Translations under genes and position numbers: made by a program
Notes under the pieces: model-generated
Told to the model about the DNA's origin: nothing
Database searches by the model: none
Seen by the model: only the letters and a program-made list of their open reading frames with translations
NCBI GenBank assembly: GCA_947066105.1
Contig: CAMSYM010000008.1
Span: forward strand, 26,695-90,694
Direction of reading: 5' to 3'
DNA length: 64,000 nt
Source: an uncultured Clostridia bacterium
Lineage (GTDB): Bacteria > Bacillota > Clostridia > Christensenellales > Pumilibacteraceae
Part shown: positions 17,912 to 53,768 of the stretch, piece by piece
Layout: every line of letters begins with the position of its first letter
Numbering within the stretch: position 1 is the first letter of the stretch

Positions 17912-17935
17912 TTCGGGTACTTCCGTATTATTGCG

Positions 17936-27327: not shown

Positions 27328-27398
27328 GATAGGGCGTCGAAGGACAATAAGTCGGCGCATGCGTGCGGCGAGCGCGCTTGTGCGCATAGGTGCAGAGA

Positions 27399-28901: not shown

Positions 28902-28936
28902 TAGCGGCGCGTTCGGCAAAAAATAACGGAGTAATC

Positions 28937-30040
28937 ATGAAAAAGTACGATTATTTGATAGTAGGCGCGGGATTGTTCGGCGCGACGTTTGCGCAGACGA
29001 TGACCGAGCGCGGCAAGAAATGTTTGGTCATAGACAAGCGCGAAAGCGTGGGCGGCAATATCGCGACCGAAAAGATCGCGGGCATAGACGTTCATAAATT
29101 CGGCGCGCACATATTCCACACGAGCGACAAACGCGTTTGGGATTACGTAAACAGGTTCGCCGAATTCAATAATTTCATCAACAGCCCGATAGCCAACTAT
29201 AAAGGCAAGCTTTACAGCCTGCCGTTCAACATGTATACGTTTTACCAGCTGTGGGGGACGCGCACCGCGGCGGAAGCGCGCGCGGTCATCGAATCGCAAC
29301 GCGCGGCGACGGGAATTACCGATCCCAAAAATCTCGAAGAAAAAGCGTTGATGTCGGTCGGCGAGGATGTGTATAAAATTCTGATCAAGGGCTATACCGA
29401 AAAACAGTGGGGCAGGGATTGCAAATATCTGCCGTCGTTTATTATCGGACGAGTGCCGTTGCGATTCGTATACGACAACAATTATTTCAACGACCGTTAT
29501 CAGGGCATTCCGATCGGCGGCTATACCCAAATGGTCAAGCGCATGCTCGACGGTATCGACGTCAAGCTCGGCGTCGATTACTTTTCCGACAAAGCTAAGT
29601 GGGACGAGACGGCGACAACGGTTTTGTACACGGGCGAGATAGATCGGTTTTACGATTACCGTTTGGGCGAGCTGGAATACAGGTCGTTGCGGTTTGAAAC
29701 GGAAGTACTCGATGCGGAAGATCATCAATCCAACGCGGTCGTCAATTACACTGATTTCGAAACGCCGTATACGCGCATTATCGAGCATAAGCACTTCGAC
29801 AGAACGCAAAGCTCGGACAAGACGGTCGTCACTCGCGAATATCCCGAAAGCTACGTAAAGGGGAGCGAGCCGTACTATCCCGTCAACGATCAAAAGAACA
29901 ACGCGCTGTACGCCGAGTATGCGCGGCTTGCCGAAAAAGAGAAAAACGTCATATTCGGCGGACGGCTCGCCGGCTATAAGTATTACGATATGGACGACAC
30001 CGTCGCGGCGGTGTTCGAACTTACCGATAAGCTTAAATAA
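28937..30040 (+). CDS. glf: UDP-galactopyranose mutase
   Basis: IVGAGLFG, HKFGAHIFHT, YTEKQWG, RIIEHKHF, EPYYP and GRLAGYKYYDMD motifs. Confidence 0.95.
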   Translation: MKKYDYLIVGAGLFGATFAQTMTERGKKCLVIDKRESVGGNIATEKIAGIDVHKFGAHIFHTSDKRVWDYVNRFAEFNNFINSPIANYKGKLYSLPFNMYTFYQLWGTRTAAEARAVIESQRAATGITDPKNLEEKALMSVGEDVYKILIKGYTEKQWGRDCKYLPSFIIGRVPLRFVYDNNYFNDRYQGIPIGGYTQMVKRMLDGIDVKLGVDYFSDKAKWDETATTVLYTGEIDRFYDYRLGELEYRSLRFETEVLDAEDHQSNAVVNYTDFETPYTRIIEHKHFDRTQSSDKTVVTREYPESYVKGSEPYYPVNDQKNNALYAEYARLAEKEKNVIFGGRLAGYKYYDMDDTVAAVFELTDKLK

Positions 30041-30456: not shown

Positions 30457-33400
30457 ATGAAAAAACATTCCAAGGCAGTCCGTAGAGGCGTTACCGCAGG
30501 TGCGCTCGCGGCTGCGGTAGGACTCGTCGGAGCGGCGGGAGGTATCGCGGGAGCGGGCGCAAACGGCGCGTTTGCCGCGACGGCGGAACCGCTCTACAAA
30601 TCGGCGTATTCGAGCAAGGCGGAAGCCATGCAGGCGGGACTCGATCTCAACTTGAAGATCGCCGAAGAAGGCATGGTTCTTTTAAAGAACGAAAACAAAA
30701 CGTTGCCCATTGCGTCGGGCGGCGTCAAGGGCGCGCGCGTTACCGTGTTCGGTCGTGCGGGTACTAAGCCCGCCACGGGCGGGAGCGCAAACGGCGGCGA
30801 CGCGTCCGGCGGCGTTGCGGGAGTAAGCGTCGACATTTACGACAGCTTGGCGAGCGCGGGCTACCGCGTCAACCCCGTAGTAAAAGCGCAGTACGTCGAT
30901 TGGACTTCGCAGGTGCGCGAAGTACCCGGCACGGACTGGCAGGGCAATCCCACGGTCACGCAACAGCCCGTATATCCGAGCGATGCGTCCATCGCGGCGG
31001 AAATAGAAAAATTCGGCAACGACAGTGACTGGGTCAAGTCGTTCGACAGCTACAACGACGCGGCGCTCATATTCATAAGCGGCGGGTCCAACGCGATAGG
31101 TTCGGGCGCGGGCAAACGCATACACTCGTTGCAGCTCGACGAAGAGCAGTACGAACTTGTGGAACACGTGGTCGATTCGGGTAAGTTCAAACGCATAGTA
31201 TTGCTTTTGAACACCTGCACGCCGCTCGAACTCGATCTTGCGAGATTCGACGATGTGGGCGCGATATTGCAGATAGGCGAGCCGGGCGACAACGGCTTGG
31301 GCGCGCTCGGCAAAGTACTTAACGGCACGGTGTCCCCGTCGGGACGGCTTACCGATACGTGGGCTAAGGACTTTACGAAAGACCCGTCTTATCACAACTT
31401 CAATACCCGTACCGACAACTTCGGTTGGTCGGTCGACGGCAACGGAACTTTTACCGGCTATACGCGGTATAAGGTGGACGGCAAGCTCGTCAACACGTGG
31501 TCGGTTGGATACGAGGAAGGCATCTATACGGGTTATCGCTATTACGAAACGCGCGGCGCGTCCGACGAAGCTTGGTATAACAACAACGTCAACTGGACGT
31601 TCGGCTACGGTCTTTCGTATACCGATTTTAAGTGGGAGCTTGTCGGCGAGCATATGAACACGACCGGTATCGGCGCGAACACTACGTTAACATACGATGT
31701 GAAGGTCACCAATACCGGCGATCATGCGGGTAAGGACGTTGTGGAACTTTATTACACTGCGCCGTACACCGAATTCGACAAAACCAACGGCATAGAAAAA
31801 GCGCATGTCGTTTTGGGCGATTACGCCAAGACCGATACGCTCAGACCGGGCGAAAGTCAGGTGGTCCATCTTACGCTCGATGCGAAGGATATGGCGTCCT
31901 ACGATTTTGCGGTAAATAAAACTTACGTACTCGAACAGGGCGATTACGAAGTCAAGCTCATGGAGAACGCGCATACGGCTAAGGGCGAGAACTTGTCCAA
32001 GACGTATAGCGTTGCGGACCTTGTCAAGTGCGACACCGCCGTTACGGGCAACAAGATAACCAACCAATTCGACGACGTTACCGACGGCTTTAAGTCCGAA
32101 GGCTACGTATCGCTTTCGCGCAACGACTGGGAAGGCACCATGCCGACCGAGCTTGCGACAGTCGATACCGTCGACGGCTACGCCAAGGCGAGCGTCAAGG
32201 AGATAACCGCCGAGCAATATAAAAAATGGGCGTACGACGACGCGGCGTTCAACGCCAAGTACGACGGCATAGCTACCGTCAAGCTCGGCGACGCGTCCAA
32301 GCGCACCGGCGATACGTATAAGTTCGTTCTTTCCGACCTTATCGGCGCGGATGCGGAAGACGCGCGTTATCAGGAACTCGTCGAACAGCTCACCGTCGAA
32401 GAGATGATCGATCTCGTCAACAACGGCGGATTCCAATCCAAGGCGATACCGTATATCGGCAAGCCGTTCTCGCGCGATACCGACGGGCCCAAGGGCTGGA
32501 CGGGCAACTATACCGACAGCACCGACCGCTTCAACTTCTTCGCGTCCGAACCGATGATCGCAAGCACGTACAGCAAAGACCTTGCGTACGAAATGGGCGT
32601 TATGATCGGCGAACAGGGCTTGTGGGGCAACGCCACGCAGGAAAGCGGCGTCGCGTACAACTATACCGGCTGGTACGCGCCCGGCATGAATATACACCGC
32701 GGCTACTTCGACAGCCGCTATACCGAGTATTATTCGGAAGACCCCGTGCTTACCGGCATGACGGCGGCTTCCGCGTCGCTCGGCGCTAAGTTGAAAGGTT
32801 GCTATATCACGCTCAAACACTTTGCGTTCCACCAAGACGGCGGCGGCGCGTCCACCTACCGTGCGGGCGCGATGGCGGCGGCAGGCACGCCCAACGAAGG
32901 TTTGTCGGCGTGGATGACCGAACAGACCATCCGCGAGCTTTATCTCAAAGGCTATCAGATCGCTGTCGAAAGCGGCGAAGCTACGTTCGCCATGGGTTCG
33001 TTCACGCGTATCGGCTATACCTGGTGCGGCGGCAGCTATGCGGTAAACACCGCGCTCCTGCGCGACGAGTGGGGCTTTAAAGGCGCGGTCGTGACCGACA
33101 TCGTTCTTTACAACTCGGTCAACGCGTATCAGCTCATCAAAGCGGGCGCCAACCTTATGCTCGACGCCAAGGTGTACGGCATAAACGGCGGCATTTATCT
33201 CGACAAAGCGACTATCGACGCAATGCCCGCCGCGGATAAAAACATCACGCTCCATTGCTTACAGCAGGCTACCAAGCAGGTACTGTACATGGTCGCCAAC
33301 AGCAACGCCATGCAGATCCCGACCGGCGCGAAAATAGTCTACACGGGCATGACCGAAGTAGACGGCGAAGAAGTAGAGCTCAAACTCGCGGACGCCAAGG

Positions 33401-33768
33401 TCGGCGCGGCGTATACTTCCGTCGCCGTGAACAATGCGTCGCTCAACACGTACTACGCATTCTCGGATATCCGATACTCGGTGGCGGGTCTGCCCGACGG
33501 CTTGACGTTCGACGCCGATACAGGCGTGATAAGCGGCACTCCGACCAAGGCGGGCGTCTACAACATTACCGTCACCGCCACGGCGGAAGGCTATAAGTCC
33601 GCATCGATCGATCTCGCTTTGACGGTCGGCGCGGCGGACGGCGCGATAGACGCCGCCGATAACGGCGATACCGTCGACGCGGTGGCTGTTGCCGGTCTTG
33701 TTATCGGTATAGTCGGCTTGCTCGCGGCGGGCGCGGCGATAGCGCTTGTCGTGGTCAAGAAAAAATAA
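30457..33768 (+). CDS. GH3 beta-glycosidase 1 (permuted domain order), secreted, with Ig-like domain and C-terminal TM anchor
   Basis: EEGMVLLKNE, SPSGRLTDTW, YEEGIYTGYRYYET, FGYGLSYT, DTDGP, KHF, nucleophile motif VVTD, GLPDGLTFDADTGVISGTPT. Confidence 0.9.
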   Translation: MKKHSKAVRRGVTAGALAAAVGLVGAAGGIAGAGANGAFAATAEPLYKSAYSSKAEAMQAGLDLNLKIAEEGMVLLKNENKTLPIASGGVKGARVTVFGRAGTKPATGGSANGGDASGGVAGVSVDIYDSLASAGYRVNPVVKAQYVDWTSQVREVPGTDWQGNPTVTQQPVYPSDASIAAEIEKFGNDSDWVKSFDSYNDAALIFISGGSNAIGSGAGKRIHSLQLDEEQYELVEHVVDSGKFKRIVLLLNTCTPLELDLARFDDVGAILQIGEPGDNGLGALGKVLNGTVSPSGRLTDTWAKDFTKDPSYHNFNTRTDNFGWSVDGNGTFTGYTRYKVDGKLVNTWSVGYEEGIYTGYRYYETRGASDEAWYNNNVNWTFGYGLSYTDFKWELVGEHMNTTGIGANTTLTYDVKVTNTGDHAGKDVVELYYTAPYTEFDKTNGIEKAHVVLGDYAKTDTLRPGESQVVHLTLDAKDMASYDFAVNKTYVLEQGDYEVKLMENAHTAKGENLSKTYSVADLVKCDTAVTGNKITNQFDDVTDGFKSEGYVSLSRNDWEGTMPTELATVDTVDGYAKASVKEITAEQYKKWAYDDAAFNAKYDGIATVKLGDASKRTGDTYKFVLSDLIGADAEDARYQELVEQLTVEEMIDLVNNGGFQSKAIPYIGKPFSRDTDGPKGWTGNYTDSTDRFNFFASEPMIASTYSKDLAYEMGVMIGEQGLWGNATQESGVAYNYTGWYAPGMNIHRGYFDSRYTEYYSEDPVLTGMTAASASLGAKLKGCYITLKHFAFHQDGGGASTYRAGAMAAAGTPNEGLSAWMTEQTIRELYLKGYQIAVESGEATFAMGSFTRIGYTWCGGSYAVNTALLRDEWGFKGAVVTDIVLYNSVNAYQLIKAGANLMLDAKVYGINGGIYLDKATIDAMPAADKNITLHCLQQATKQVLYMVANSNAMQIPTGAKIVYTGMTEVDGEEVELKLADAKVGAAYTSVAVNNASLNTYYAFSDIRYSVAGLPDGLTFDADTGVISGTPTKAGVYNITVTATAEGYKSASIDLALTVGAADGAIDAADNGDTVDAVAVAGLVIGIVGLLAAGAAIALVVVKKK

Positions 33769-33885
33769 CCGTTTAGAATACCGTAATAACTGTCAATAAT
33801 AAGTAGCGCGGTAAGTCGAGTGCGTTCGCCGTATGCGGGCGTACTCGGCGAACGCGTAAATACTATTAAAGAAAAGGAGACAACT

Positions 33886-34515
33886 ATGAAAAAGTTCATC
33901 AAAAAATTGCTTGCCGTAGCTTTGGCGGGTTGCATGCTGTTTTCCGTGGGCGCGCTCACGGCATGCGGCAACGGCAACGACGAGGATAACGGCGGCGACA
34001 ACGGTTCGGGAACGGAATACACGTTCGAAGCGGAGTACACCGATCTTACGGGGCTCGAAGGCATGGGACCGTCGGGCAGTCCCAAGGGGCTGGACTTGAT
34101 AAGCGAATCCAAAGAGGCGAGCAACGAGTTTTTTGTGGGAAGCTTGGGCGAAAAAAGTCCCATAACGTTCAAGATCACGTCCGACAAAGCGGTGACCGCC
34201 ACGCTTAAAGGCATATTCGGCAGTAACGCGCTTTCGCCCATAACCTGGACTCCCGATACCTTTGCGATCGAAGTCAACGGCACGGCGATAACGTACAGCG
34301 GGTTCAAGACCGAAACGTCGGTGTCGAGCACGCAAAACTTCAAGCTCCGCACGATAGGCGATATTTCGCTCAAAGCGGGCGAGAATACGATAGTGTTCAA
34401 GCCGAAGGAAAACAAATATCTCAACGGTACTACGAGCGCGCCGTCCATCGACTGCATCAAGCTTACAGCCGATGCGACGCTCACTTTCGACGCGCACGAG
34501 AGCAATCTCGATTAG
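33886..34515 (+). CDS. Lipoprotein with a single CBM6/35-like beta-sandwich domain
   Basis: Lipobox LTAC. The domain starts FEAE and ends APSIDCIKL, as in CBM6/35-like folds. Confidence 0.7.
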   Translation: MKKFIKKLLAVALAGCMLFSVGALTACGNGNDEDNGGDNGSGTEYTFEAEYTDLTGLEGMGPSGSPKGLDLISESKEASNEFFVGSLGEKSPITFKITSDKAVTATLKGIFGSNALSPITWTPDTFAIEVNGTAITYSGFKTETSVSSTQNFKLRTIGDISLKAGENTIVFKPKENKYLNGTTSAPSIDCIKLTADATLTFDAHESNLD

Positions 34516-34659: not shown

Positions 34660-37600
34660 ATGGATCTTAAATTTATTTGGAAGCACAAAGGTACGCGCGC
34701 ATGGCTGTTGACTACCTGCATACTGTTGGTATTGGTGTTGGTCATCTCCTTCGTCATAACGCAAGTACCCATAATCAACAACTCGTTGGGACTGGTATTC
34801 GGCGGCGAGCGCGCCAATATAGTCGAAGATCGGCGCGACGAGCTTTACAACCGCGAGTACGACAACAAAAAGGACGTGCTCGCCGCGGCGAACGAGTTTG
34901 TGGAAAGCGTCGCCGAGGAAGGCATAACGTTGCTTAAAAATCAAAGCAATGCGTTGCCGCTCGGCGCGGGCGCCAAGGTCAGCGTGTTCGGCAAAAACTC
35001 GGTCGATCTCGTTTACGGCGGATCGGGTTCGGCGAGCGGCGCAACGGGCGCGGCGCGTAAAACGCTTTACGACAGTCTTAAAGCGGCGGGCATCGAATAC
35101 AACCCCGTGCTTAAAAGCTTTTACGACGACAATTCGCGGTCGGGTTCTGGCAGACCGGATAACCCGCCCATGACGAGCGGTCAGCGCTTGGCGGGCTTTG
35201 CCGTAGGCGAAACGCCTATAGCGTCGTACGAGCCGCTCGAAAATTCGTACGACGGTTATACGGACGCGGCGATCGTCGTGTTCTCGCGCATAGGCGGCGA
35301 AGGATTCGATCTGCCGCGCACCATGGCGGATGATTTCGGGTCGGATAAACCCGTGTCGGGCGCGGAGTCGGCGGACAGCCATTATCTCGAACTCGACAAA
35401 AACGAAAAAGCGTTGTTGGACCACGTCAAATCCAAGTTCGGAAAAGTGGTGGTCGTGCTCAATACGGGTACGACAATGGAACTCGGCGCGCTCGATGCCG
35501 ACCCGGATATCGACGCGGTGTTGTGGATGGGCTTGCCCGGCGCGACGGGCGTCATGGCGCTCGGCAGGATACTTACGGGCGAAGTCTATCCGTCGGGGCG
35601 CACTGTCGATACTTGGGCGGCGGATTTCACCAAAGACCCCACCTGGTACAATTCGGGCGTTTACGGCAGTAAGTACGGCAACCGCTATCTGAAACCCGAC
35701 GGCTCGACGAGCGATTTTGCTTTCGTTAATTACGAAGAAGGTATTTACGTCGGCTATCGCTATTACGAAACGCGAAGCTACGAAGAGAACAAGACCGCGC
35801 AGACCGTCGACGAGTGGTACGATGCAAACGTCGTGTATCCTTTCGGCTACGGACTGTCGTATACCGATTTCGATTGGGAAGTGTCTTTCGATAAACCGAC
35901 GGGTTCGGCAATAAATGCGGACGACGTTATCAAGGCGACGGTCAAGGTCACGAACAAGACCGAAGTCGCGGGCAAGGACGTCGTTCAGCTTTACTATACC
36001 GCGCCGTACACTGCGGGCGGCATAGAAAAATCACACGTCGTGCTCGGCGCGTTCGCAAAGACAAAGCTCATCGCGGGAGGCGGCACGGATACCGTCGAGC
36101 TGGAACTCAAAGTATCGGATATGAAGTCGTACGACTGGTCGGACGCCAACGGCAACGGGTTCAAGGGCTACGAGCTGGACGCGGGCAAATACACGGTGAC
36201 GGTCGGAACGGACGCGCATACCGCAAAGGCGAGCGCGACGTACGAGCTTAAAGACGGCGTTACGTTGCGCGAGATAGCCGATGCGGACGGAAAAGCGGTC
36301 GCGGTGCAAAACCGTTTCGACGACGTGAGCGCGGGCATATTCGGCAACGATACCGCGGCGGCGTATGTATCGCGTTCGGACTTTGACGGAACTTTGCCGC
36401 AGGCGTATTTGACGGACGGCGAGCGTACGCTCACGCAAGAGCTTTTGACCAAGCTCGAAAATTCGATCAAGCGCAAGTATACGGAATCGGACGACGGCAA
36501 AAAATGGCAGGTGACCGGCGAGTCGCCGCGCACCACGCCCGTCGATAACGGGATATCTTTTGCCGACATGCTGTATGACGACGACGGCAATTTCGTCGGT
36601 TCGGCGGACTTCGACGATCCGCGCTGGGAAAAACTGCTCGACGAGATATCGCTCGACGAAATGAAAAATCTCGTCGGATTCGGCGCGTTCCGCACCAATG
36701 CTGTGTCGGGCGTGAACGGCGTAGTGGATAAACCGTTGACCAACGACAGCGACGGTCCGAGCGGGTTCACGAGCTTTATTTCGGGCGCGACCATATACGA
36801 CACCTGCTCGTATCAGGCGGAATGCTTGCTCGGCGCGACGTGGAACGTAGAGCTTGCTTACCGCATGGGCGAGATAGTCGGCGAGGAAGGTTTGGTTGGT
36901 AACGAAAAGGGCGACGGCATGCCGTACAGCGGCTGGTATGCGCCGGCGGTAAATATCCACCGCAGTCCGTTCGCTGGCAGGAACTGGGAATATTACAGCG
37001 AGGACGGCTTGCTTTCGGGCAAGTTCGCCGCCGAAGTCATTAAGGGCGCGCGGACAAAGGGCGTATATTGCTACGTCAAGCATTTTGCGGTAAACGATCA
37101 GGAAACCGACCGCGAGTACAACGGGATCTTGGTTTGGGCTAACGAACAGGCTATGCGCGAGATATACTTGGAGCCGTTTGAAATAGCAGTCAAGCAGGGC
37201 AAAGCCAACGCCATGATGACGTCGTTCAACCGTTTGGGCATGACGTGGGCTGGCGGCAGCTACGAGCTGCTCACCGAAACGTTGCGCGACGAATGGGGCT
37301 TTAAAGGCATGGTCATTACCGATTACAGCCTTAACCGTTATACGTACGTCGATCAGATGATACGCGCGGGCGGCGACTTGTTTTTGACTCAGGACGTAAA
37401 AACGTTCAATATGCCCGACGACGCTACGCAGGTAACGCTGTTGCGTAAGGCGACTAAAAATATTTTGTATACCGTAGCCAACAGCAATATCATGAGCATA
37501 AAGATAGACGGCTATAAGCTGGCGGTGTGGCAAGTGGTCCTTATCGTTATCGACGTAGCGGTGATAGTCGCGCTCGCCGTATGGGGAGTGCTGATAATAT

Positions 37601-37722
37601 ACTTCACGCGCAAGCGCGAAAAGGAAATGCTCGGCGTCGGTCCGGCGGCGAGTGGGGCGGAGCTCGACCGTTCGACGGACGCGCCGTCGGGAGAACAGCC
37701 TGTCGACAGCGACGAAAAATAA
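34660..37722 (+). CDS. GH3 beta-glycosidase 2 (permuted), N- and C-terminal TM anchors
   Basis: EEGITLLKN, YEEGIYVGYRYYET, DSDGP, KHFAVNDQE, VITD. Confidence 0.9.
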   Translation: MDLKFIWKHKGTRAWLLTTCILLVLVLVISFVITQVPIINNSLGLVFGGERANIVEDRRDELYNREYDNKKDVLAAANEFVESVAEEGITLLKNQSNALPLGAGAKVSVFGKNSVDLVYGGSGSASGATGAARKTLYDSLKAAGIEYNPVLKSFYDDNSRSGSGRPDNPPMTSGQRLAGFAVGETPIASYEPLENSYDGYTDAAIVVFSRIGGEGFDLPRTMADDFGSDKPVSGAESADSHYLELDKNEKALLDHVKSKFGKVVVVLNTGTTMELGALDADPDIDAVLWMGLPGATGVMALGRILTGEVYPSGRTVDTWAADFTKDPTWYNSGVYGSKYGNRYLKPDGSTSDFAFVNYEEGIYVGYRYYETRSYEENKTAQTVDEWYDANVVYPFGYGLSYTDFDWEVSFDKPTGSAINADDVIKATVKVTNKTEVAGKDVVQLYYTAPYTAGGIEKSHVVLGAFAKTKLIAGGGTDTVELELKVSDMKSYDWSDANGNGFKGYELDAGKYTVTVGTDAHTAKASATYELKDGVTLREIADADGKAVAVQNRFDDVSAGIFGNDTAAAYVSRSDFDGTLPQAYLTDGERTLTQELLTKLENSIKRKYTESDDGKKWQVTGESPRTTPVDNGISFADMLYDDDGNFVGSADFDDPRWEKLLDEISLDEMKNLVGFGAFRTNAVSGVNGVVDKPLTNDSDGPSGFTSFISGATIYDTCSYQAECLLGATWNVELAYRMGEIVGEEGLVGNEKGDGMPYSGWYAPAVNIHRSPFAGRNWEYYSEDGLLSGKFAAEVIKGARTKGVYCYVKHFAVNDQETDREYNGILVWANEQAMREIYLEPFEIAVKQGKANAMMTSFNRLGMTWAGGSYELLTETLRDEWGFKGMVITDYSLNRYTYVDQMIRAGGDLFLTQDVKTFNMPDDATQVTLLRKATKNILYTVANSNIMSIKIDGYKLAVWQVVLIVIDVAVIVALAVWGVLIIYFTRKREKEMLGVGPAASGAELDRSTDAPSGEQPVDSDEK

Positions 37723-37742: not shown

Positions 37743-37782
37743 CAAAACGGATATCGGATAAACTTCGGTATCCGTTTTTTTG
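37743..37782 (+). terminator. Terminator ending GH3 cluster 1
   Basis: AAAACGGATATCGG / CGGTATCCGTTTTTT stem. Confidence 0.75.
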
Positions 37783-42836: not shown

Positions 42837-43037
42837 AAACCACTATATATTGTGTATATGGTGGTTTTTTATTGCGAAATTGTCACAACACCAAAAGGCA
42901 TACATTACACGCTTAGTATACAAAAAGCGCACTTTTACGGCGTTAAATTTTATTAGGCATGCGCATTTATAATGTTGACATGTGTCGGAATTTATGATAT
43001 TATTAGTAAAAAGCGAGATTGCGGAGGCGAAAATTGT

Positions 43038-45065: not shown

Positions 45066-45242
45066 TATTTCGGTGCAAATAGCGGTAAATACGAAAATGT
45101 CTTTTGATGGCGATCGTTTAGTAAATACAATATACTATTATCAGTCGACAATTTTCCAAAACGCTTTTCTTTTTGAGAAAAGTGTGGTATACTTAGGTTG
45201 AATGCTCGATGTTGCGGGCATCGAAACGGATCGGAGCGGAAA

Positions 45243-45953
45243 ATGACCAAGATAGCGATAGTCGAAGACCAACGTTCGGAAGCGGAGTTGTTGAAAAGAC
45301 TGTTGAGCGAGTATGCCGAAGCGCATACCCGCGAATTTGTCGTGGAGTGGTTCGACGATCCTAAAAAGTTTTTGGACGGGTTCGACGTCGATCTCGATCT
45401 GGTGTTTTTGGATATCCAAATGCCGAATATCAACGGTATGGATGTCGCGCGCAAAATTCGCGAGCGCGATTGCGACGTAAACATAGTGTTCGTTACCAAT
45501 ATGATCCAGTACGCGGTGGAAGGCTATTCGGTGCAGGCGTCCGATTTTATAGTCAAGCCCGCCGCGCCCGCAAGCGTCAATCGCGTTATGAACAGGGCGC
45601 TTGCCGCGTCCGATCGCAACGCCGATAAAACGGTCACTATAAAAAACGCCGCCGACGGACGTACGGTCGTCGTAAAAGCGAGCGAGATCTATTATGTGGA
45701 AGGCAGCGGACACAGGATCACATATCACACGGCGCACGGCGAGTTTTCGGATTGGGGATCTATGAACGCGGTGGCGGCGGAATTACCGTCGCGCAGTTTT
45801 GCGCGCTGTCACGTGTCGTTTCTCGTCAATCTCAAATACGTGCGTGAAACTTCAAAGGATACCGTCAGGGTGTGCGACGACGTTTTGCCGTTGAGTCGCA
45901 CTCAGAAAAGCGCGTTTTTCGCCGAACTTGCCGCCTATCTCGGCGGATCGTAG
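45243..45953 (+). CDS. LytTR-family response regulator
   Basis: IVED, FLDIQMP, FVT and FIVKP receiver motifs. LytTR domain IYYVE...H...FARCHVSFLVNL. Confidence 0.92.
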   Translation: MTKIAIVEDQRSEAELLKRLLSEYAEAHTREFVVEWFDDPKKFLDGFDVDLDLVFLDIQMPNINGMDVARKIRERDCDVNIVFVTNMIQYAVEGYSVQASDFIVKPAAPASVNRVMNRALAASDRNADKTVTIKNAADGRTVVVKASEIYYVEGSGHRITYHTAHGEFSDWGSMNAVAAELPSRSFARCHVSFLVNLKYVRETSKDTVRVCDDVLPLSRTQKSAFFAELAAYLGGS

Positions 45954-45984
45954 CTCGGTAAATTTCAATGTCAAGGGATCGGTC

Positions 45985-46328
45985 ATGAAAAAATTTAAAA
46001 GCATAATAGGCGTTTTGTGCGCACGCTTGATGCTTTTCACTGTCGCAGTCGGTTGCGGCAATGCGCACGCGCCGATTTTCCCCGACGGTGGTATCGAAAC
46101 TCGCGTAACGCCGCCCGACGGCGGGGATGAGAAATATGGAGCTTTGCGGGCTTTGATAATCTCGCATTGCAGTTCGCCGCGATCGATAGAGTTACGTTCG
46201 ACGGTTCCGACATAACGGGATCGTCCTATCATGCAACGCAGGTTTGCAAAGCTTGCGCGGTAAGCATGATTAACGGGCATGGCGTGAGCTTTTTTTCGCG
46301 GTACTTCGGTGATGTTGCGGAAAAATAG
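45985..46328 (+). pseudogene. Frameshifted lipoprotein-like remnant
   Basis: Signal peptide with VAVGC lipobox in one frame. It continues as WSFAGFDNLALQFAAIDRVTFDGSDITG... in another frame from about 46137 to TAG 46328. Confidence 0.5.
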
Positions 46329-46368
46329 GGTGGGCCGTAAAGCGTTACGGCAAAAACACTGCGGATAA

Positions 46369-47739
46369 ATGGTAATGTATAATTTTTCTTCGGCGCTGTT
46401 TTGGTACAAGTTCATATTTATAACGGAGCTTATCACTGCGGAATGCACGTTCGTGTTTTTGCTCAAAGAGCGCAAAAGATTTTTATTGCGCGCCGTGCTG
46501 TCCGTTTTGGGCATGTACGGACTGACTTTTGCCGTGCCTATATTCGGATACAACGCGCTTGCGGTGTCCGCGCTTTTTTCCGCGCTGTTTGTGGCGAGCC
46601 TTGGCGCGATGAAGATATGCTTCGACGAAAAATTCGGCGTTATCCTGTTTTGCGGGATATGGGCGTACACGGTACAGCATTTTTCTTATCTTATAGGCAA
46701 CTTTATCACGACGGCGGCGGGGCTTTCGAGCGGATCGTTTTACGAATCGACCATAACGGTGTACAATGCGGGTTCGCTACTTATCGGCACAGCGGCGTTT
46801 ATAGTCGTGTACTTGGCGTCCATGTTTACCGTGCGATACATATTCCGCAACATGACCGAGATACGCATACACGGTTTCGTGCTGGTCGTGCTGTCTATCA
46901 TTTCGCTCGTGATAGAGATAGTGCTCAACGCAATAGTCGTATTTTTGCAGGTGGAAACGGTGTCGCTCACGCTGTTTGCGCTGTGCTATGTTTACGATAT
47001 TCTCGGGTGTCTGCTCACCATAGGTTTGTTGATATTTTCGCTGTGGAACAAATCGTTACAGCGCGACAAGGCGATAATGCAACTGCGGTTCGACAGGGAG
47101 CGGCAAAGCTTCGAGATACGCAAGGATAAGATAGACCGCATAAACATCATGTGTCACGATCTTAAACACCGCATACGCGAGCTGGGCGAAACGGGCTATG
47201 CGAACGACAAGCTGAAAAAGCTCGAAAGCGCCATAAAAAGCTACGACGCGCGGTTCCGCACGGGCAACGACGCGTTGGACGTGATACTTTCGGACGCGAA
47301 TGTCCAGTGCGAAAAGAGCGGCATACAGTTTGTGTGCATGGCGGACGGATCGTTGCTTGCGCATATGGAGACCGATCATATATATTCGCTGTTCGACAAT
47401 GCCATAAACAACGCTATCGACGCGGCGGGCAATGTCGACGAACCCGAAAAGCGATACGTGTACGTTTCGGTCGCGCGCAAAAACGGCATGATAACGGCGC
47501 ATGTGGAAAACTGTTTCGTAAACGACGGTAAGCTGACGTTCGAGAACGGCGTGCCGCAAACTACCAAGAACAACGCCGACGAGCTTCACGGCTACGGCAT
47601 GCGCAGTATCAAGCATATAGTCGAGCTGTACGGCGGCGGGTTGTCTGTCAAGGCTGACGGTGATATTTTTATGCTGGATATATTTATCCCGTTTGTCGAG
47701 CGGGCGGACGATACCAAACTTGAAACGAAAACGACCTAA
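46369..47739 (+). CDS. GHKL sensor histidine kinase (AgrC/LytS-like)
   Basis: Multiple TMs, HDLKH, TGNDALDVIL, LFDNAINNAID and HGYGMRSI motifs. Confidence 0.92.
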   Translation: MVMYNFSSALFWYKFIFITELITAECTFVFLLKERKRFLLRAVLSVLGMYGLTFAVPIFGYNALAVSALFSALFVASLGAMKICFDEKFGVILFCGIWAYTVQHFSYLIGNFITTAAGLSSGSFYESTITVYNAGSLLIGTAAFIVVYLASMFTVRYIFRNMTEIRIHGFVLVVLSIISLVIEIVLNAIVVFLQVETVSLTLFALCYVYDILGCLLTIGLLIFSLWNKSLQRDKAIMQLRFDRERQSFEIRKDKIDRINIMCHDLKHRIRELGETGYANDKLKKLESAIKSYDARFRTGNDALDVILSDANVQCEKSGIQFVCMADGSLLAHMETDHIYSLFDNAINNAIDAAGNVDEPEKRYVYVSVARKNGMITAHVENCFVNDGKLTFENGVPQTTKNNADELHGYGMRSIKHIVELYGGGLSVKADGDIFMLDIFIPFVERADDTKLETKTT

Positions 47740-47843: not shown

Positions 47844-49469
47844 ATGAAAAAACTGTCGAAGATCCTATTGTCGACGCTCGTCGCGGTCTTGCTCGGCTTT
47901 TCGTTCGCGGCGTGCGGCGGAAGCCGGCTCACTGCGATAGAGATCGTGTCCGATACGACCGAATTCGTAGCGGGCGACGTGATAAGCACGGAGTTTGTGT
48001 CGGTAAACGCCAAGTATGCCGACGGGAGCAGTCGCACGGTCACGGGCTGGACTGCCGATATTACGGGCGCGCTCGAACAGGGCGAGCATACCGTAACTAT
48101 TACATATACCGAAAACGGCGTGACAGTCAGCGCGACGCTCGACGTTACTGTGTCGGAGACGGAGCATGTTCATGAGTTCGGAGCGGAATGGCAAAGCGAC
48201 GACGTCGCGCACTTTCGCGTTTGCGCTTGCGGTGCGCGTACGGACGAAGCGGCGCATATCCGCGCCGGCATAACGGTGACAGCCGAAGCGGACTGCATTA
48301 CGGACGGCACGCGCGCTTATGTTTGCGCCGTTTGCGATCGCAAGGGCGAGGAAAAGTTAGCCGCGCTCGGTCACAGCTTTAATATAGACCGTCTCGACGA
48401 CAACTCGCATTGGAAGGATTGCGCGCGTTGCAACGCATCGTCGCAAAAGCTCGCGCATGATTTTATCCTATGCGTAGATAACGTAAAGACGGAATGGTTT
48501 GACGGCGATACTTTTACGCTCGACGGGGCGACCGCGCATAAGGAGTGCGACTGCGGATATGCGAGTGAGCTGGATATTGCTACGGTCGTTTCGTCCAAAA
48601 CGGAATTGAACGTGACCGACGGCGGCGAATTGACATTGACTTGCGGCGAATTGACGACGACGATAAATATAGACGTCAAACGTCGCGAGATAATCGGCAT
48701 CGAAATCGATCCGTCGACAAAAAACGTTTACTTGATCGGCGAAGCGTTCGGCGGCGGCACGCTCGTGATAACGTACAACAATTCTTCTACGACTACAACC
48801 GAATTGACCGTCGACATGATAAAAGGCTTTGATACGAACAGCGTCGGCGAAAGAACGTTTGAAGTAGAATACGACGGAAAAAAGTGCGAGCTTGCGGTCA
48901 AAATAGGATACGACGCGCAGTCCGGCGCATATGAGCTGGGTACGGAAAAGCGTGCGTATAAATTGCAAGCGGAAGATGAAACGTATGTTGATATGAGCGG
49001 CGCGGCGTTGCAAAAAGGCACTGCGACCAATAAATTCGAAAATCAGGCAAAGGACGGGAACAATCAGTTATATCCCAACGGCGCCGAAGGATACAGTACT
49101 TGCAATATCACTAAACCGGGCAATAAAATAGTGATAAAATTCTATTCGCGTTCGGCGGGAAAATTCAAGCTCGGTCTACGTGCGCAATCGGGCAATAAAG
49201 CAGGGAAAAGCGATGTTGCCGTCGACGCGGCATTTTCGGTAAAAGTCAACAGTTCGCAAAAAAAGATAAACGGCAATATTGCGAAGGCGAGCTTGTCCGG
49301 TAGTAATTGGCAAAATATGACTAATTGGACAACGCTCGAAGATATCGCGGGCGAGTTGGATATTGTTGTCGGTTTGAATACGATCGAGTTCGCTTATCTC
49401 GGCACGTTAGACGGTACCGGCGATCTGCGTTTCCCCAATATCGACTACTTTATTATTACATTGATTTGA
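47844..49469 (+). CDS. Lipoprotein with Ig-like (Big_3-type) domains, Cys/His modules and C-terminal CBM-like domain
   Basis: Lipobox FAAC. Ig-like YxxGExFxGGTLVITY..GFDT. C-terminus homologous to that of 58512..60038. Confidence 0.7.
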   Translation: MKKLSKILLSTLVAVLLGFSFAACGGSRLTAIEIVSDTTEFVAGDVISTEFVSVNAKYADGSSRTVTGWTADITGALEQGEHTVTITYTENGVTVSATLDVTVSETEHVHEFGAEWQSDDVAHFRVCACGARTDEAAHIRAGITVTAEADCITDGTRAYVCAVCDRKGEEKLAALGHSFNIDRLDDNSHWKDCARCNASSQKLAHDFILCVDNVKTEWFDGDTFTLDGATAHKECDCGYASELDIATVVSSKTELNVTDGGELTLTCGELTTTINIDVKRREIIGIEIDPSTKNVYLIGEAFGGGTLVITYNNSSTTTTELTVDMIKGFDTNSVGERTFEVEYDGKKCELAVKIGYDAQSGAYELGTEKRAYKLQAEDETYVDMSGAALQKGTATNKFENQAKDGNNQLYPNGAEGYSTCNITKPGNKIVIKFYSRSAGKFKLGLRAQSGNKAGKSDVAVDAAFSVKVNSSQKKINGNIAKASLSGSNWQNMTNWTTLEDIAGELDIVVGLNTIEFAYLGTLDGTGDLRFPNIDYFIITLI

Positions 49470-49481
49470 TCGGAGATATAT

Positions 49482-52400
49482 ATGAATTTCAAGACGTTTT
49501 GGAAAAAAAGAAGCTTTAAGGCGTGGTTTTGCTCGTTCATACCCGTGCTTGCTTTGACGCTTGCCGTCGTGCTTGTGCTTACGTGCAATACCTTTTTGTA
49601 TCAAACGATAAACGCCGTGTTGGGCGGCGAGCGTCGCGTGTTAAAAAGCGGTGACCCGTCCAAGTATCAGTATTACACCACGGAGTACAAGGGCAAGGAC
49701 GACGTGCTTGCGGCGGCGAACGCGCTCAACGAGCGCATAGTAGAAGAAGGCGCGGTGCTTTTGAAAAACGAAAATAACGCATTGCCCGTCGCGGCGGGCG
49801 CAAAGGCTACCGTTTTCGGCAAGAATTCGGTCAACGCGGTTTACGGCGGTTCGGGTTCCAACGCGGGCGCGGGCGGCGACGACGGCAAATGCACTCTTTA
49901 CGATAGTTTGGAAAGCGCGGGAATCGAGTATAACGACGCGATGAAGGCGTTTTACGACAGCGACAAGCGATCGGGCGACGGTCGTCCCGCATCGCCCGAC
50001 ATGAATTCGACCATAACGGGTTTGACCGGCTTTGCCACGGGCGAAACGCCTGCCGACAGGTACGACGATACGGTACGCGCGTCGTGGAAGGATTACAACG
50101 ATCTGGCGATAGTGTTTATCTCGCGCATAGGCGGCGAGGGCTTCGATCTGCCGCGCTCCATGTTTTGGGACGGCAAGGGTTATCAAAACTGGAACGGCGA
50201 TTCGCTCATACCCGGCGCGCGTAACAAGGACGATCACTACTTACAGCTCGATAAAAACGAAACGGACATGATAAGCGTCGCCGCGCAAAACTTCGATAAG
50301 GTCGTTGTCGTGCTTAACTGCCCCACGAGCATGGAACTCGGATTTTTGGACGATCCCGATCATTACGCGTACAGCGACAAAATAAAAGCGTGCTTATGGA
50401 TAGGCACGCCCGGCAATTCTGGCATGGCGGCGCTCGGCAGGATACTGACGGGCAAAGTTAATCCGAGCGGGCGGACGGCGGATATTTACGCGCGCGACTT
50501 TAAAAAAGACCCGACCTGGAACAACTTCGGCAATAATCTCGAAGAGGGCGGCAATCAGTACGTCGACGAGAACGGCGAAAAGCGCAGTGCGTACTTCGTG
50601 CATTACAGCGAGGGCATTTACATAGGCTACCGCTATTATGAAACGCGTGCGCTTACGGAATCGAATAACGGCAACGGCGGGTGGTATAAGGACAACGTGG
50701 TGTTCCCGTTCGGTTACGGGCTGAGCTATACAGACTTTACGTGGAGCGTCGAGCGTACTTCGCATTCCGAAAGCTTCGACGGCGACGACACGATCACCGT
50801 CGACGTAAAGGTCGTCAACGTCGGCGACGTTGCGGGCAAGGACGTAGTACAGCTTTACTATTCCGCGCCGTACTATTCCGATAGCGGTATCGAAAAATCG
50901 CACGTCGTTTTGGGCGCGTTCGCAAAGACGAAGTTGTTGCAGCCCGGCGAGAGCGATACAGTTGCGCTCGAACTTTCCGCGCGCGATATGGCGAGCTACG
51001 ACTATGCGGACGGTAACGGCAACGGGTTTAAGGGCTACGAACTCGAACACGGCAACTATACGCTGTACGTTGCGCGCGATTCGCACGACCGTTCCGCGCC
51101 AGTCACGCTTTCGCTCGGCGCGGACGTCAAGTACGAAACGGACGGCAAAACGGAGACGCCCGTTAAAAATCTTTTCGACGACGTAAGCTCGCGCGTGACC
51201 GAGTACATGAGCCGCGACGACTTTGAAGGAACGTTTCCGCAAGAACCGTCGGCGGAGCTTCGCACGCTCAAAGCGAGCGATATACAAAAGCTGAATTACA
51301 CGTTAAAGGATAAGGCGAGCGATCCGTGGTACAGTACGGATATGCCCGATCAAAGCGCGTCGGAGCTTACGCGCGATCAAACAAAGATCAAGCTTTACGA
51401 CCTTATAGGCAAGGACTACGAACACGAGCTGTGGGACGAATTGCTCGATCAATTGACTGTTTCGCAAATGCGCTCGCTCATAGAGATAGGCAACTACCAT
51501 ACCGAAGCGATAGTCGGTATAGACAAACCCAAAACCACCGATCCCGACGGACCTATGGGCTACTCGCTGTTCATGGGCGACGACGCGGTGTATAAGACCT
51601 GCTACTATGCGGGCGAATCGCTCATGGGTAGCACGTTCAACGTCGAACTGGCGGAAGAGTTCGGCAAGATGATAGGCGACGAGTCGCTCATCGGCGATCG
51701 CAAGGGCGACAAGCGCACGTATTCGGGCTGGTACGCGCCCGCGTGCAATCTTCACCGCAGTCAGTTCGGCGGACGCAACTTCGAGTATTACAGCGAGGAC
51801 CCCGTGCTTTCGGCTAAAATGGCTGTGGGCGTTATCCAAGGCGCGATGAGCAAGGGCGTATATACTTATCTCAAACATTTTGTCATGAACGATCAGGAAA
51901 CCAACCGCGACACCAACGGTATAGCGGTGTGGGCTAACGAGCAGACCATGCGCGAGCTGTACTTTTTACCGTTTGAAAAGGCGGTCAAGGACGGCGGCAC
52001 TACCGCGATGATGAGTTCGTTCAACCGCATAGGCTTTACCTGGGCGGGCGGAAATCACACGCTGTTGACAAAGCTTCTGCGCGACGAGTGGGGCTTTAAG
52101 GGCATGGTGATAACCGATTACAACCTGCAACAGTACATGAACGTCGACCAAATGATCCGCGCGGGCGGCGACGTCAACCTGAGCCAAAGCAAATCGCTCA
52201 AAAATTACGATACCGCGACTTCGGTCACGGCTATACGCAAAGCTGCCAAGAACATTCTGTACACGGTAGCCAACAGCAACGCCATGAACGGCATGGGCGA
52301 AGGCAACGTTTGGGCGTACGCCGCGCCCGTATGGTTCATAGCTATGTGGGTCGTGTTTGCCGTGCTTGCGGCGGGATTTGTCGCATGGGGCGCGGCGGTG

Positions 52401-53768
52401 ATAGCGAAAATAGCCGTCGAGTACAATACGGGCGTAAAGAGCGGCGTTATAGTACCGCCCGCAAAAAAGCAACGCGTCAAAGATCCCGACTTTAAAATGA
52501 GCAAGCTCGCTAAGATATTCATAGCGGCGACGGGCGGCGCGGCGGTCGCGCTTGCGGTGACGGCGATAGCGCTTTTGGCTACGCCCGCCGAGCAAAGCGG
52601 CGTGCCGCAGGATTACAGACCATACGTCGGCGGGATCACTTTGACTTTCGACAACATGCCCGTTACGGGCGGAGTAGTCACCGTCGAGCGCGGCGGCGAC
52701 ACTCACCGCATAACGGCGCTCGTCGATACGTACGGCATGGAATCGGGCGGGGTCGTATACGAAAGCTCCGACGAGAATATAGCGGCGGTCGGAGCGGACG
52801 GCACGATCGACGCGAGAGCGGTCGGCGAATGTTCGGTCACCGTTACGGTAGTCAACGATAAGTCGGTGTACGGCGCTTTGCTTGTGCGCGTTACCGACGG
52901 CGAGCTTGACGGCACGGCGCACGTCGTGACGGTGGTGGGCGGAAGCGCGAATTTGGCGCAGGCGACTGCGGGAACGACGGTAATACTCACGCCCGAAACT
53001 CGTACGGGCATGCGCTTCGTCGGCTGGGAATTCGACTGTGAAGTCGAACAAAGCGGAAACCTGTTCCGCATGCCGTCCGCGCCCGTTACCGTAACGGCTA
53101 AGTACGAGAAGATAGGTTACAAACTGACGCTCGACGGCGCGACGTTCGCGGACGGCGAAAGCGAAAAAACTCTGTTGTACGAGGACGGTTTCCCGCAAGA
53201 CATGCGTTATACGCTCGACGACGGCGAGCTGTTTTTCGGCTGGCGCGACAAGGTGAACGGCAAACGCGTGACCGATCTTACCATGCCCGCGCGCGACATG
53301 ACGATACAGCCGATGATCCTTGCCAAGGGCGATGCGCTCGTCATGGCGGAAAACGGATTCGATTACGGTTCGGGTACGGGCGGCAATGCGACCGATACCG
53401 ATATCGACGGCGTAGCCGCAAAGCGCATAGAGATAGCGGCGGGGCAAAGCCTTGTGCGCATCAAAAACGGCGGAGTCACCGGCGGCGGCGATAACGACGT
53501 GTACGTCGGCATCACTCTGCGCAATCCCAACGAGTTCGATATAACTTTGGAATATCAGGTGGAGTATTACGGCGTAGTGTGGGGTACGGGCAAGGTGACA
53601 GTCAAGGCGGGCGAAACGGCAACATATGCCATAGTCGTAAACGGACTGGACGCAACGGCGACGCCTTATCACAGAATAGTTTTGGAAGCGGCGACGGAAC
53701 AAACGGCAATGCTCGATTTTTGCGGGTTTATTTACGAAACCGAAGGAGAGAACAATGAAAATGCGTAA
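49482..53768 (+). CDS. GH3 beta-glycosidase 3 (permuted) with TM hairpin, Big_2-like, InlB-B-repeat-like and beta-sandwich domains
   Basis: EEGAVLLKNE, YSEGIYIGYRYYET, TDPDGP, KHFVMNDQE, VITD. Two TMs after the catalytic core. Confidence 0.9.
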   Translation: MNFKTFWKKRSFKAWFCSFIPVLALTLAVVLVLTCNTFLYQTINAVLGGERRVLKSGDPSKYQYYTTEYKGKDDVLAAANALNERIVEEGAVLLKNENNALPVAAGAKATVFGKNSVNAVYGGSGSNAGAGGDDGKCTLYDSLESAGIEYNDAMKAFYDSDKRSGDGRPASPDMNSTITGLTGFATGETPADRYDDTVRASWKDYNDLAIVFISRIGGEGFDLPRSMFWDGKGYQNWNGDSLIPGARNKDDHYLQLDKNETDMISVAAQNFDKVVVVLNCPTSMELGFLDDPDHYAYSDKIKACLWIGTPGNSGMAALGRILTGKVNPSGRTADIYARDFKKDPTWNNFGNNLEEGGNQYVDENGEKRSAYFVHYSEGIYIGYRYYETRALTESNNGNGGWYKDNVVFPFGYGLSYTDFTWSVERTSHSESFDGDDTITVDVKVVNVGDVAGKDVVQLYYSAPYYSDSGIEKSHVVLGAFAKTKLLQPGESDTVALELSARDMASYDYADGNGNGFKGYELEHGNYTLYVARDSHDRSAPVTLSLGADVKYETDGKTETPVKNLFDDVSSRVTEYMSRDDFEGTFPQEPSAELRTLKASDIQKLNYTLKDKASDPWYSTDMPDQSASELTRDQTKIKLYDLIGKDYEHELWDELLDQLTVSQMRSLIEIGNYHTEAIVGIDKPKTTDPDGPMGYSLFMGDDAVYKTCYYAGESLMGSTFNVELAEEFGKMIGDESLIGDRKGDKRTYSGWYAPACNLHRSQFGGRNFEYYSEDPVLSAKMAVGVIQGAMSKGVYTYLKHFVMNDQETNRDTNGIAVWANEQTMRELYFLPFEKAVKDGGTTAMMSSFNRIGFTWAGGNHTLLTKLLRDEWGFKGMVITDYNLQQYMNVDQMIRAGGDVNLSQSKSLKNYDTATSVTAIRKAAKNILYTVANSNAMNGMGEGNVWAYAAPVWFIAMWVVFAVLAAGFVAWGAAVIAKIAVEYNTGVKSGVIVPPAKKQRVKDPDFKMSKLAKIFIAATGGAAVALAVTAIALLATPAEQSGVPQDYRPYVGGITLTFDNMPVTGGVVTVERGGDTHRITALVDTYGMESGGVVYESSDENIAAVGADGTIDARAVGECSVTVTVVNDKSVYGALLVRVTDGELDGTAHVVTVVGGSANLAQATAGTTVILTPETRTGMRFVGWEFDCEVEQSGNLFRMPSAPVTVTAKYEKIGYKLTLDGATFADGESEKTLLYEDGFPQDMRYTLDDGELFFGWRDKVNGKRVTDLTMPARDMTIQPMILAKGDALVMAENGFDYGSGTGGNATDTDIDGVAAKRIEIAAGQSLVRIKNGGVTGGGDNDVYVGITLRNPNEFDITLEYQVEYYGVVWGTGKVTVKAGETATYAIVVNGLDATATPYHRIVLEAATEQTAMLDFCGFIYETEGENNENA

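Follow-up and report, generated by a model that had tools for sequence, protein, structure and literature searches.

The 64,000-nucleotide stretch of DNA analysed here (the window: positions 26,695 to 90,694 of contig CAMSYM010000008.1, from an uncultured Clostridia bacterium of the mouse gut) carries a small lipoprotein gene at 33886-34515, between two genes for glycoside hydrolases of family 3, GH3-1 and GH3-2. The domain that makes up most of this lipoprotein recurs, covalently joined, at the C-terminus of another enzyme of the window, GH3-4. The likeness of the lipoprotein and the GH3-4 C-terminus is far above chance, and because in gut Firmicutes the domain is almost always found next to or fused to GH3 enzymes, it is very probably their working partner. 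We infer, with a probability of about 0.6, that the lipoprotein binds carbohydrate and cooperates with its neighbours, serving as a carbohydrate-binding module (CBM) in trans that concentrates substrate for a membrane-tethered pair of exo-acting GH3s.

An earlier note on this DNA had matched the lipoprotein by eye to the end of GH3-4, and the motifs it quoted are all found in the lipoprotein and in GH3-4 residues 1399-1575. Pairwise alignment by BLASTP bears the match out: lipoprotein residues 2-209 align with GH3-4 residues 1363-1570 at 76/220 identities (35%; 78 bits, E=1e-20), and this is the sole significant alignment, all other segments of GH3-4 giving E>3. The alignment reaches the C-terminus of the lipoprotein and at its other end pairs the lipoprotein's signal peptide, KKFIKKLLAVALAGCML, with the second hydrophobic helix of GH3-4, KTFIKIASPIVGVML. 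The N-terminus of the lipoprotein, MKKFIKK-LLAVALAGCMLFSVGA-LTAC27, fits the lipobox pattern [LVI][ASTVI][GAS]C and is predicted to be lipidated. The architectures described in the note were also recovered: GH3-1 has one immunoglobulin-type (Ig) domain, He_PIG, and one C-terminal transmembrane (TM) segment, and GH3-4 has three He_PIG stretches followed by TM1, a loop, TM2 and the lipoprotein's domain. In an AlphaFold model of GH3-4 residues 1240-1575 an Ig sandwich comes first, then a pair of long helices and finally a jelly roll.

Set side by side, the two architectures correspond, GH3, Ig and TM segment followed by signal peptide and domain in the one case, GH3, Ig, TM hairpin and domain in the other, and to this extent the note's proposal that GH3-1 plus the lipoprotein is a split version of GH3-4 stands. 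As a direct counterpart the pair fails: homology between GH3-1 and GH3-4 runs to residue 1028 and takes in the Ig/TM region, but the two cores share 34% identity and the two domains 35%, and the GH3-4 core is nearer to those of GH3-2 and GH3-3 (43%). The nearest free relatives of the GH3-4 domain are other lipoproteins (P0260, 73%; P0262, 62%). Judged by these comparisons, GH3-1 and the lipoprotein of the window are a paralogous split module of GH3-4's design.

The orthologous split state of GH3-4 exists in other genomes, at loci L082, L086 and L087. At L082 a He_PIG-bearing GH3 of 1342 amino acids ends in a TM segment, a basic tail and a stop, and a gene for a 213-amino-acid lipoprotein (AAAGGAG, ATG) lies 40 bp downstream; the GH3 is 61.6% identical to GH3-4 over residues 8-1316 and the lipoprotein 62.3% over residues 1367-1575. 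The gene upstream encodes a second GH3 and is itself preceded by one for a Big_3 protein, as in the window, and the layout of L086 and L087 matches that of L082. Two contigs from Logan, L078 and L079, were considered as a further split form and rejected, having no He_PIG GH3 and an adjoining Mob_Pre gene. On L078 a GH3-4-type domain (7929-8573, 78% identical) stands after a GH3 and a short Big_3 open reading frame (ORF), and the contig also holds a gene for a Mob_Pre relaxase and, in duplicate, a LytTR regulator; the L078/L079 arrangement may be rearranged or mobile.

Fused forms recur across the family. An exhaustive profile search returned 1488 representative clusters (E<=1e-3), and the best 150 representatives include 61 small free proteins, 56 proteins of 261-700 amino acids and 28 longer ones, many with 4-7 tandem copies of the module. 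A GH3 core is present in 8 of these 150, and in 8/8 a TM hairpin lies between enzyme and module. The order GH3, He_PIG, hairpin and one module, as in GH3-4, is seen in P0118 and P0145; GH3, hairpin and four or five modules in P0131, P0141, P0203, P0238 and P0227; and the reverse order, seven modules, hairpin and GH3, in P0132. These architectures, at least three in number, represent the middle gene of the three-gene unit described below joined to either of its neighbours. A search with the GH3-4 C-terminus likewise found fused fragments (84% and 67% identical) as well as free lipoproteins (73%, 62% and 51%). As split forms greatly outnumber fused ones, fusion is probably derived. In a neighbour-joining tree drawn without support values the fused and free forms are interleaved, and the loop of P0145 is three times longer, which hints at more than one fusion event.

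GH3-4 is the covalent version of the split arrangement. It would have arisen when a GH3 with a C-terminal anchor was joined by read-through to the lipoprotein gene downstream of it; the enzyme's anchor would have become TM1, the cytoplasmic tail and intergenic spacer the basic loop, and the signal peptide TM2. The hairpin loop is positive-inside, which fits both parts being outside the cell; with this layout both parts of GH3-4 would therefore stay extracellular. Immediately after TM2, at residues 1390-1397 (TAAAGKLE, 57922-57945), the sequence A-P-T-A-A-A-G resembles a type-I signal-peptidase site, and TM2, if it still works as an internal signal peptide, could allow the C-terminal domain to be cut free of GH3-4 once inserted. 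GH3-3 also has a TM hairpin after its catalytic core (helices 52329-52385 and 52521-52577), followed by a tail of which about 215 amino acids are unassigned. The possibility that this extracellular tail is a copy of the lipoprotein domain was discarded (hhalign probability 0.4%); GH3-3 appears to follow the same hairpin-fusion principle with a different passenger.

The use of domain fusions to deduce functional linkage, the Rosetta-stone inference to which the earlier note appealed, reportedly goes back to Marcotte et al. and Enright et al. in 1999. The present case is alike in that split and fused forms are found at the level of orthologues (L082 against GH3-4) and, as paralogues, within one genome. 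It is unlike in that two exported proteins were joined: the signal peptide had to become a second TM segment, and all eight fusions have the hairpin.

That the likeness reflects a chance alignment, or the fused ORF an assembly error or frameshift that merged two genes, is a possibility of negligible weight. Beyond the E value of the pairwise alignment, fused orthologues of GH3-4 occur in independent assemblies at 84%, 77%, 67% and 52% identity (the set consists of P0118, P0145, P0256 and P0257), and contigs of three independent metagenome studies (mouse gut and faeces, ~98% identical) cover 57000-58480, across the junction, with zero indels. The differences listed number 33, of which 28 are synonymous and 5 non-synonymous. 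A contig of a run labelled 'RNA?' covers 57545-57903 and so crosses the hairpin. The GH3-4 fusion is genuine and not an artefact. Two related strains lack one base at 58481, within the run of A that belongs to the GH3-4 stop (TAAAAA), and still have the TAA.

Genomic neighbourhoods were collected by scanning one genome per species with two peptide motifs of the family, which gave 70 loci, 69 of them non-redundant, with identities to the lipoprotein from 90% to 25%. The first contexts inspected, those of homologues 47-57% identical, all (4/4) showed a He_PIG GH3, a small protein and a second GH3 on one strand. In the full set a permuted GH3 lies on both sides, on the same strand and within 700 bp, at 57/69 loci, and at least one is adjacent at 68/69; most of the loci without the two-sided arrangement are interrupted by contig ends. 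The downstream GH3 has an N-terminal TM segment in 61/67 loci. A lipobox is present in about two thirds of the middle proteins, and the remainder have a type-I signal peptide. Two multi-copy proteins with enough context are encoded directly 3' of a permuted GH3 gene, which itself follows genes for a LytTR response regulator and a kinase. This near-universal adjacency to permuted GH3 genes, together with the recurrent fusions, argues strongly for the functional side of the note's proposal that the domain works physically with GH3.

The term permuted refers to the GlyA1-type subfamily of GH3, in which an (alpha/beta)6 sandwich is followed by an FnIII domain and an (alpha/beta)8 barrel (PMC5104943). 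All four GH3s of the window show the permuted order PF01915, PF14310, PF00933 (GH3_C, Fn3-like, GH3_N), as do the flanking GH3s elsewhere. The relatives of GH3-1 in the PDB are beta-glucosidases. By record title the loci come from Clostridia, Christensenellaceae, Lachnospiraceae, Anaerovoracaceae, Oscillospiraceae and Bacilli/Izemoplasmatales, and two cultured Lachnospiraceae, Kineothrix alysoides KNHs209 and Lachnospiraceae bacterium 10-1, are among the carriers. Three loci labelled Alloprevotella sp. or Bacteroidaceae bacterium (L049, L050 and L069) show identities equal to, and a gene layout close to, those of L048 and L067, from an Anaerovoracaceae bin of the same project; wrong binning of contigs is the probable cause, not a presence of the gene in Bacteroidota. 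A LytTR response regulator and GHKL kinase recur beside GH3/module units (L001, L006, L078, L084, L085 and L087); at other such loci a PucR-type HTH_30 regulator takes the place of the LytTR pair.

Mouse-gut metatranscriptome contigs (33000-34065 and 33584-34049) span the GH3-1 stop and the start of the lipoprotein gene, the gene itself is covered by such contigs, and a consensus scan found no terminator-like site in either intergenic gap of the GH3-1/lipoprotein/GH3-2 unit. Co-transcription of GH3-1 and the lipoprotein gene is likely but short of proof, RNA-library contigs being liable to contain DNA.

The lipoprotein resisted annotation. Pfam (at default settings and at E<=10), NCBIfam and a single-sequence phmmer search of the PDB gave nothing usable; among 5.8 billion proteins searched it has 110 relatives, of 133-257 amino acids, none with a precomputed Pfam domain and every named one called 'hypothetical'. 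The AlphaFold model, built on a 31-sequence alignment, has a mean predicted local distance difference test (pLDDT) score of 85 and a predicted template-modelling score of 0.78, and forms a beta-sandwich over residues 43-201. Foldseek against the PDB places CBM35 modules or CBM35-bearing enzymes at the top (2w3j, E=8e-6, TM-target 0.76; also 2wz8, 3zm8 and 2w46), with CBM6 lower and 1NKG also present. Apart from the CBM35 chains 2wz8 (E=2.5e-4) and 2w3j (E=4e-3), the family profile has no credible match among PDB sequences. Among the 31 aligned members, in contrast to these nearest structures, Pfam CBM_6 and CBM_35 have zero matches at E<=1, and no Pfam or NCBIfam family reaches threshold in any. 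The nearest Pfam family is PF14683, 'CBM-like', which stays below its gathering cut-off of 27 bits in the lipoprotein (13.7 bits) and the GH3-4 C-terminus (20.2 bits); it is the only sub-threshold family to recur, in 8/31 members with a best value of 4e-5, and it exceeds threshold in the distant GH3-fused relatives P0131 (46.6 bits) and P0141 (49.6 bits). PF14683 corresponds to domain III of the PL4 rhamnogalacturonan lyases; here, unlike there, the partner enzyme is a GH3.

The comparison with CBM35 (2W3J, 2WZ8, 2W46) and CBM6 cuts both ways. The domain is a beta-jelly-roll of similar size (Foldseek E from 8e-6 to 1e-4, TM-target 0.6-0.76), begins with the same x-E-A-E motif and has A-S-x-G-x-x-V-G and, at its end, A-P-x-I-D-x-I in common with them; VNG and GxNT are further motifs common to the family and the aligned CBM35 chains. 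Identity, however, is just 11-25%, a long and highly conserved G-x-G-x-S-G-S loop is absent from the aligned CBM35s, and where those modules are directly appended to their enzymes the domain here is deployed on its own, as a lipoprotein or a secreted protein, or lies beyond a TM hairpin. In CBM6 and CBM35 the Asn of region C, at the foot of the loop-type binding site, is reported as invariant and critical for hydrogen bonds to the sugar (PMC9843283). At this position 2wz8 reads APNID, whereas the lipoprotein family has a nearly invariant Ser (APSID) and GH3-4 a Leu (APLID). Four aromatic residues, W121, Y137, F140 and F152, are nearly invariant in the family, and any of them may be a candidate for region A, which in CBM6/CBM35 is an aromatic (Trp) platform for stacking. 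Conserved positions in loops include G59-G68, S79/N80, N131, N151/F152 and S187. E48, E50 and D189 are invariant in the family alignment and are consistent with the structural Ca2+ site of CBM6/CBM35, which we take to consist of Glu from the N-terminal x-E-x-E strand and Asp from the C-terminal strand. Within the CBM6/35 superfamily the domain represents a divergent branch whose site is non-canonical, and it is not a demonstrable member of either family; the note's suggestion of an unclassified CBM family agrees with this. Neither of the outcomes that the note named as counting against it, a non-significant alignment or a known CBM with unrelated genomic contexts, was obtained with BLASTP, Pfam, NCBIfam and the loci collected. 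It is very unlikely that the module is an ordinary member of a catalogued CBM family, drawn from many unrelated contexts and next to GH3s by accident: the fold is CBM35/CBM6-like and some distant relatives pass the PF14683 threshold, but the 31 aligned members reach threshold in no Pfam or NCBIfam model, and both the synteny, with its GH3 at 68/69 loci, and the recurrent GH3 fusions contradict incidental adjacency.

In the mechanism that we favour, the 209-amino-acid protein would be a lipid-anchored, extracytoplasmic and non-catalytic beta-jelly-roll module of the CBM6/CBM35 structural superfamily, encoded second in a conserved set of three genes (a permuted GH3, often with He_PIG, the module, and a second permuted GH3) that is widespread in gut Bacillota and often beside a LytTR two-component system. 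Sequence analysis supports both GH3s as ecto-enzymes held on the outer face of the membrane by TM anchors, and a module on a flexible Gly/Asn/Asp linker whose own anchor is lipid or, in GH3-4, TM2. Adjacent to the enzymes, the module would bind an oligosaccharide or chain end and keep the substrate at the surface for the exo-acting enzymes. Tandem CBM copies are an established pattern of avidity-driven glycan binding, and it is because relatives carry 4-7 tandem modules that ligand avidity is favoured.

Several points weigh against this reading. Collection of loci by motif biases the synteny count to close relatives, though it reaches down to 25% identity and three look-ups made without the motifs agreed. 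No sugar transporter is found in the module operons. The canonical CBM6/CBM35 binding mode is not retained, because the region C Asn has become Ser or Leu. In GlyA1, the one permuted GH3 that has been characterised, the CBM6/35-like C-terminal domain carried in cis bound none of xylan, cellulose and barley glucan, and its removal lowered activity 2- to 18-fold (PMC5104943); by analogy, these data point to a catalytic rather than a binding role. The last two points would suit a module that is instead a protein-protein accessory subunit, supplied in trans or through a hairpin fusion, which docks on the permuted GH3 and raises catalysis in the manner of this predicted CBM6/35-like domain, GlyA1-Ct. 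Docking would also suit GH3-1 and GH3-2, which have no room for a cis domain between core and TM segment, the strict placing of the gene between two GH3 genes, and the third or so of the family that has a type-I signal peptide and no lipid anchor, whose retention would need a cell-bound partner. We nevertheless regard such a subunit, the main rival to substrate capture, as unlikely: homology to GlyA1-Ct receives no support from the family profile, which at E<=10 against the PDB did not detect the 921-residue GlyA1 chain 5k6l_A (a deposited chain that may lack the C-terminal domain), 4-7 tandem copies suit multivalent ligand binding better than a stoichiometric subunit, and in the fusions two membrane passes and linkers separate module from enzyme, an arrangement that does not require docking. 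More speculative still is the idea that the three-gene unit forms an obligate membrane-tethered hetero-complex of the module and two paralogous permuted GH3s, in which the module would not be a classical CBM and would serve as the essential non-catalytic activating or gating subunit, a trans version of GlyA1-Ct. The module might, alternatively, bind the cell's own wall polysaccharide to position the enzymes, or present a ligand to a LytTR-type sensor kinase. The recurrence of a LytTR response regulator and GHKL kinase beside it could be read in this way, as could the genes for a GT2 glycosyltransferase and UDP-galactopyranose mutase just upstream of GH3-1 in the window; but the latter pair is not conserved at other loci, a PucR-type HTH_30 regulator, or the absence of LytTR genes from the flanks that were read, is common among the loci, and the fusion partner is always a GH3 and never a kinase, and we judge anchoring or sensing improbable.

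Two known systems are useful for comparison with the substrate-concentrating module that we prefer. The GlyA1 C-terminal domain (PDB 5K6L) is likewise CBM6/35-like, tied to permuted GH3s of gut bacteria and without obvious canonical binding motifs. It is, on the other hand, only ~120 amino acids long and fused straight to the barrel domain, and PMC5104943 mentions no signal peptide or TM segment, whereas the module here is a separate exported protein or stands behind a TM hairpin on an extracellular enzyme. The literature on permuted GH3s, CBM35 lipoproteins and LytTR yielded no description of the protein or the three-gene unit and no report of carbohydrate binding by the protein, the permuted GH3 papers being the only ones found. 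The SusE/F-like surface glycan-binding proteins of Bacteroidota polysaccharide utilisation loci are non-catalytic, lipid-anchored, CBM-like proteins that are encoded in glycan-degrading operons and act in trans. In this comparison the likeness lies in a CBM-like lipoprotein encoded with surface enzymes; the differences are that the present system is Gram-positive, has no SusC/D pair or transporter, belongs to another fold family and has exo-acting GH3 partners.

The features of the window are collected in the table. The ORF of GH3-2 opens with a TTG at 34564, and the likely start is the ATG at 34660, 3' of GGGAG. Two Big_3 lipoproteins (47844-49469 and 58512-60038) flank the GH3-3/GH3-4 pair, and their C-terminal domains, of ~170 amino acids, are 56% identical (E=4e-65). 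The FPNIDYF end of this domain is CBM6/35-like with the Asn kept; the domain has no Pfam match and no sequence match in the PDB, and its relationship to the lipoprotein family is a weak one (hhalign probability 66%, E=5.6e-5; hmmsearch 6.9e-5). The GT2 glycosyltransferase and UDP-galactopyranose mutase (Glf) genes occupy 27390-30040, directly upstream of GH3-1, and suggest the synthesis of a glycan that contains galactofuranose; a galactofuranose-containing substrate, to which they could have pointed, was dropped as the pair is missing from the other loci examined. Elsewhere in the window are a BspA-type leucine-rich-repeat surface protein of 1497 amino acids (2683-7176; LRR_5, E=2e-168) and a GmrSD-type restriction endonuclease (42972-45065). 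An ORF of 1048 amino acids without family (14793-17939, + strand) is almost certainly spurious, being antisense to two real genes of the - strand, for an NAD-dependent epimerase/dehydratase (14760-16289) and a CLC chloride channel (16286-17911).

Table. Coordinates in the window of the lipoprotein gene, the GH3 enzymes and associated features.
Feature	Position	Strand	Basis or remarks
GH3-1, permuted GH3: GH3_C 73-360, Fn3-like 428-501, GH3_N 700-888, He_PIG 994-1057; N-terminal signal sequence	30457..33768	+	Pfam, hydropathy
C-terminal TM anchor of GH3-1 (residues 1075-1100), followed by KKK and stop	33679..33756	+	hydropathy
Shine-Dalgarno AGGAG of lipoprotein gene	33875..33879	+	6 nt 5' of ATG; from sequence
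Lipoprotein gene	33886..34515	+	209 amino acids; ATG start, stop TAG 34513-34515
Predicted lipoprotein signal peptide, lipobox L-T-A-C (Cys27)	33886..33966	+	sequence; kept in close homologues
Gly/Asn/Asp-rich flexible linker GNGNDEDNGGDNGSG of lipoprotein, ~15 residues	33967..34011	+	pLDDT <55; length varies in alignment
CBM35/CBM6-like beta-jelly-roll domain of lipoprotein (residues 43-201), from FEAEY start motif to APSIDCI end motif	34012..34488	+	AlphaFold, Foldseek, profile against PDB
GH3-2, permuted GH3: N-terminal signal-anchor TM and C-terminal TM	34660..37722	+	Pfam, hydropathy
Terminator-like hairpin and T-run closing the GH3-1/lipoprotein/GH3-2 unit	37755..37774	+	consensus scan only
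LytTR response regulator (45198-45953) and GHKL (HATPase_c_5) histidine kinase (46369-47739)	45198..47739	+	upstream of second GH3 cluster
Lipoprotein with Big_3 repeat and ~170-amino-acid C-terminal jelly-roll-like domain ending FPNIDYF	47844..49469	+	possible distant relative of the domain
GH3-3: permuted core, TM hairpin (residues 950-968, 1014-1032), extracellular Big_2 / Flg_new_2 / unassigned tail	49482..53768	+	Pfam, hydropathy
GH3-4 (1575 amino acids): permuted core, three He_PIG stretches, TM hairpin, lipoprotein's domain	53755..58482	+	fusion protein
TM1 of GH3-4 hairpin (residues 1323-1348)	57721..57798	+	hydropathy, model; equivalent to C-terminal anchor of unfused GH3s
Cytoplasmic basic loop DKRNYADGSKAKLNKTFIK of GH3-4 (residues 1349-1367), 19 residues	57799..57855	+	read as former cytoplasmic tail, intergenic spacer and signal-peptide n-region
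TM2 of GH3-4 (residues 1368-1389)	57856..57921	+	aligned to lipoprotein signal peptide; lipobox Cys lost
C-terminal CBM35/6-like domain of GH3-4 (residues 1398-1575)	57946..58479	+	alignment, model
Second lipoprotein with Big_3 repeats and C-terminal domain 56% identical to that of 47844..49469	58512..60038	+	sequence

Glycoside hydrolases commonly carry CBM-like modules, and for permuted GH3s there is one earlier mention of CBM6/35-like domains. New are a large family without a Pfam or NCBIfam model and with a non-canonical site, its near-obligate position between two permuted GH3s in the three-gene unit of gut Bacillota, the deployment of the module as a free lipoprotein, and the TM-hairpin fusions, which recur, preserve topology and are documented by orthologues in split and in fused form. 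The fusions are a clean example of how exported proteins can be joined without loss of topology, the signal peptide turning into a second TM helix, and searches for similar cases could take the hairpin as their signature.

Little is understood of how gut Firmicutes use their extracellular GH3 exo-glycosidases, and Gram-positive equivalents of the surface glycan-binding proteins of Bacteroidota are largely undescribed. A concrete candidate for a new CBM family, one whose binding site is non-canonical, has been identified here, and it may help to explain why the C-terminal domain of GlyA1 enhances activity; its culturable carriers make the module accessible to experiment. Were the hetero-complex to be real, it would be a previously unrecognised Gram-positive cell-surface machine for glycan processing, under LytTR control and with a new CBM-like family as one of its parts.

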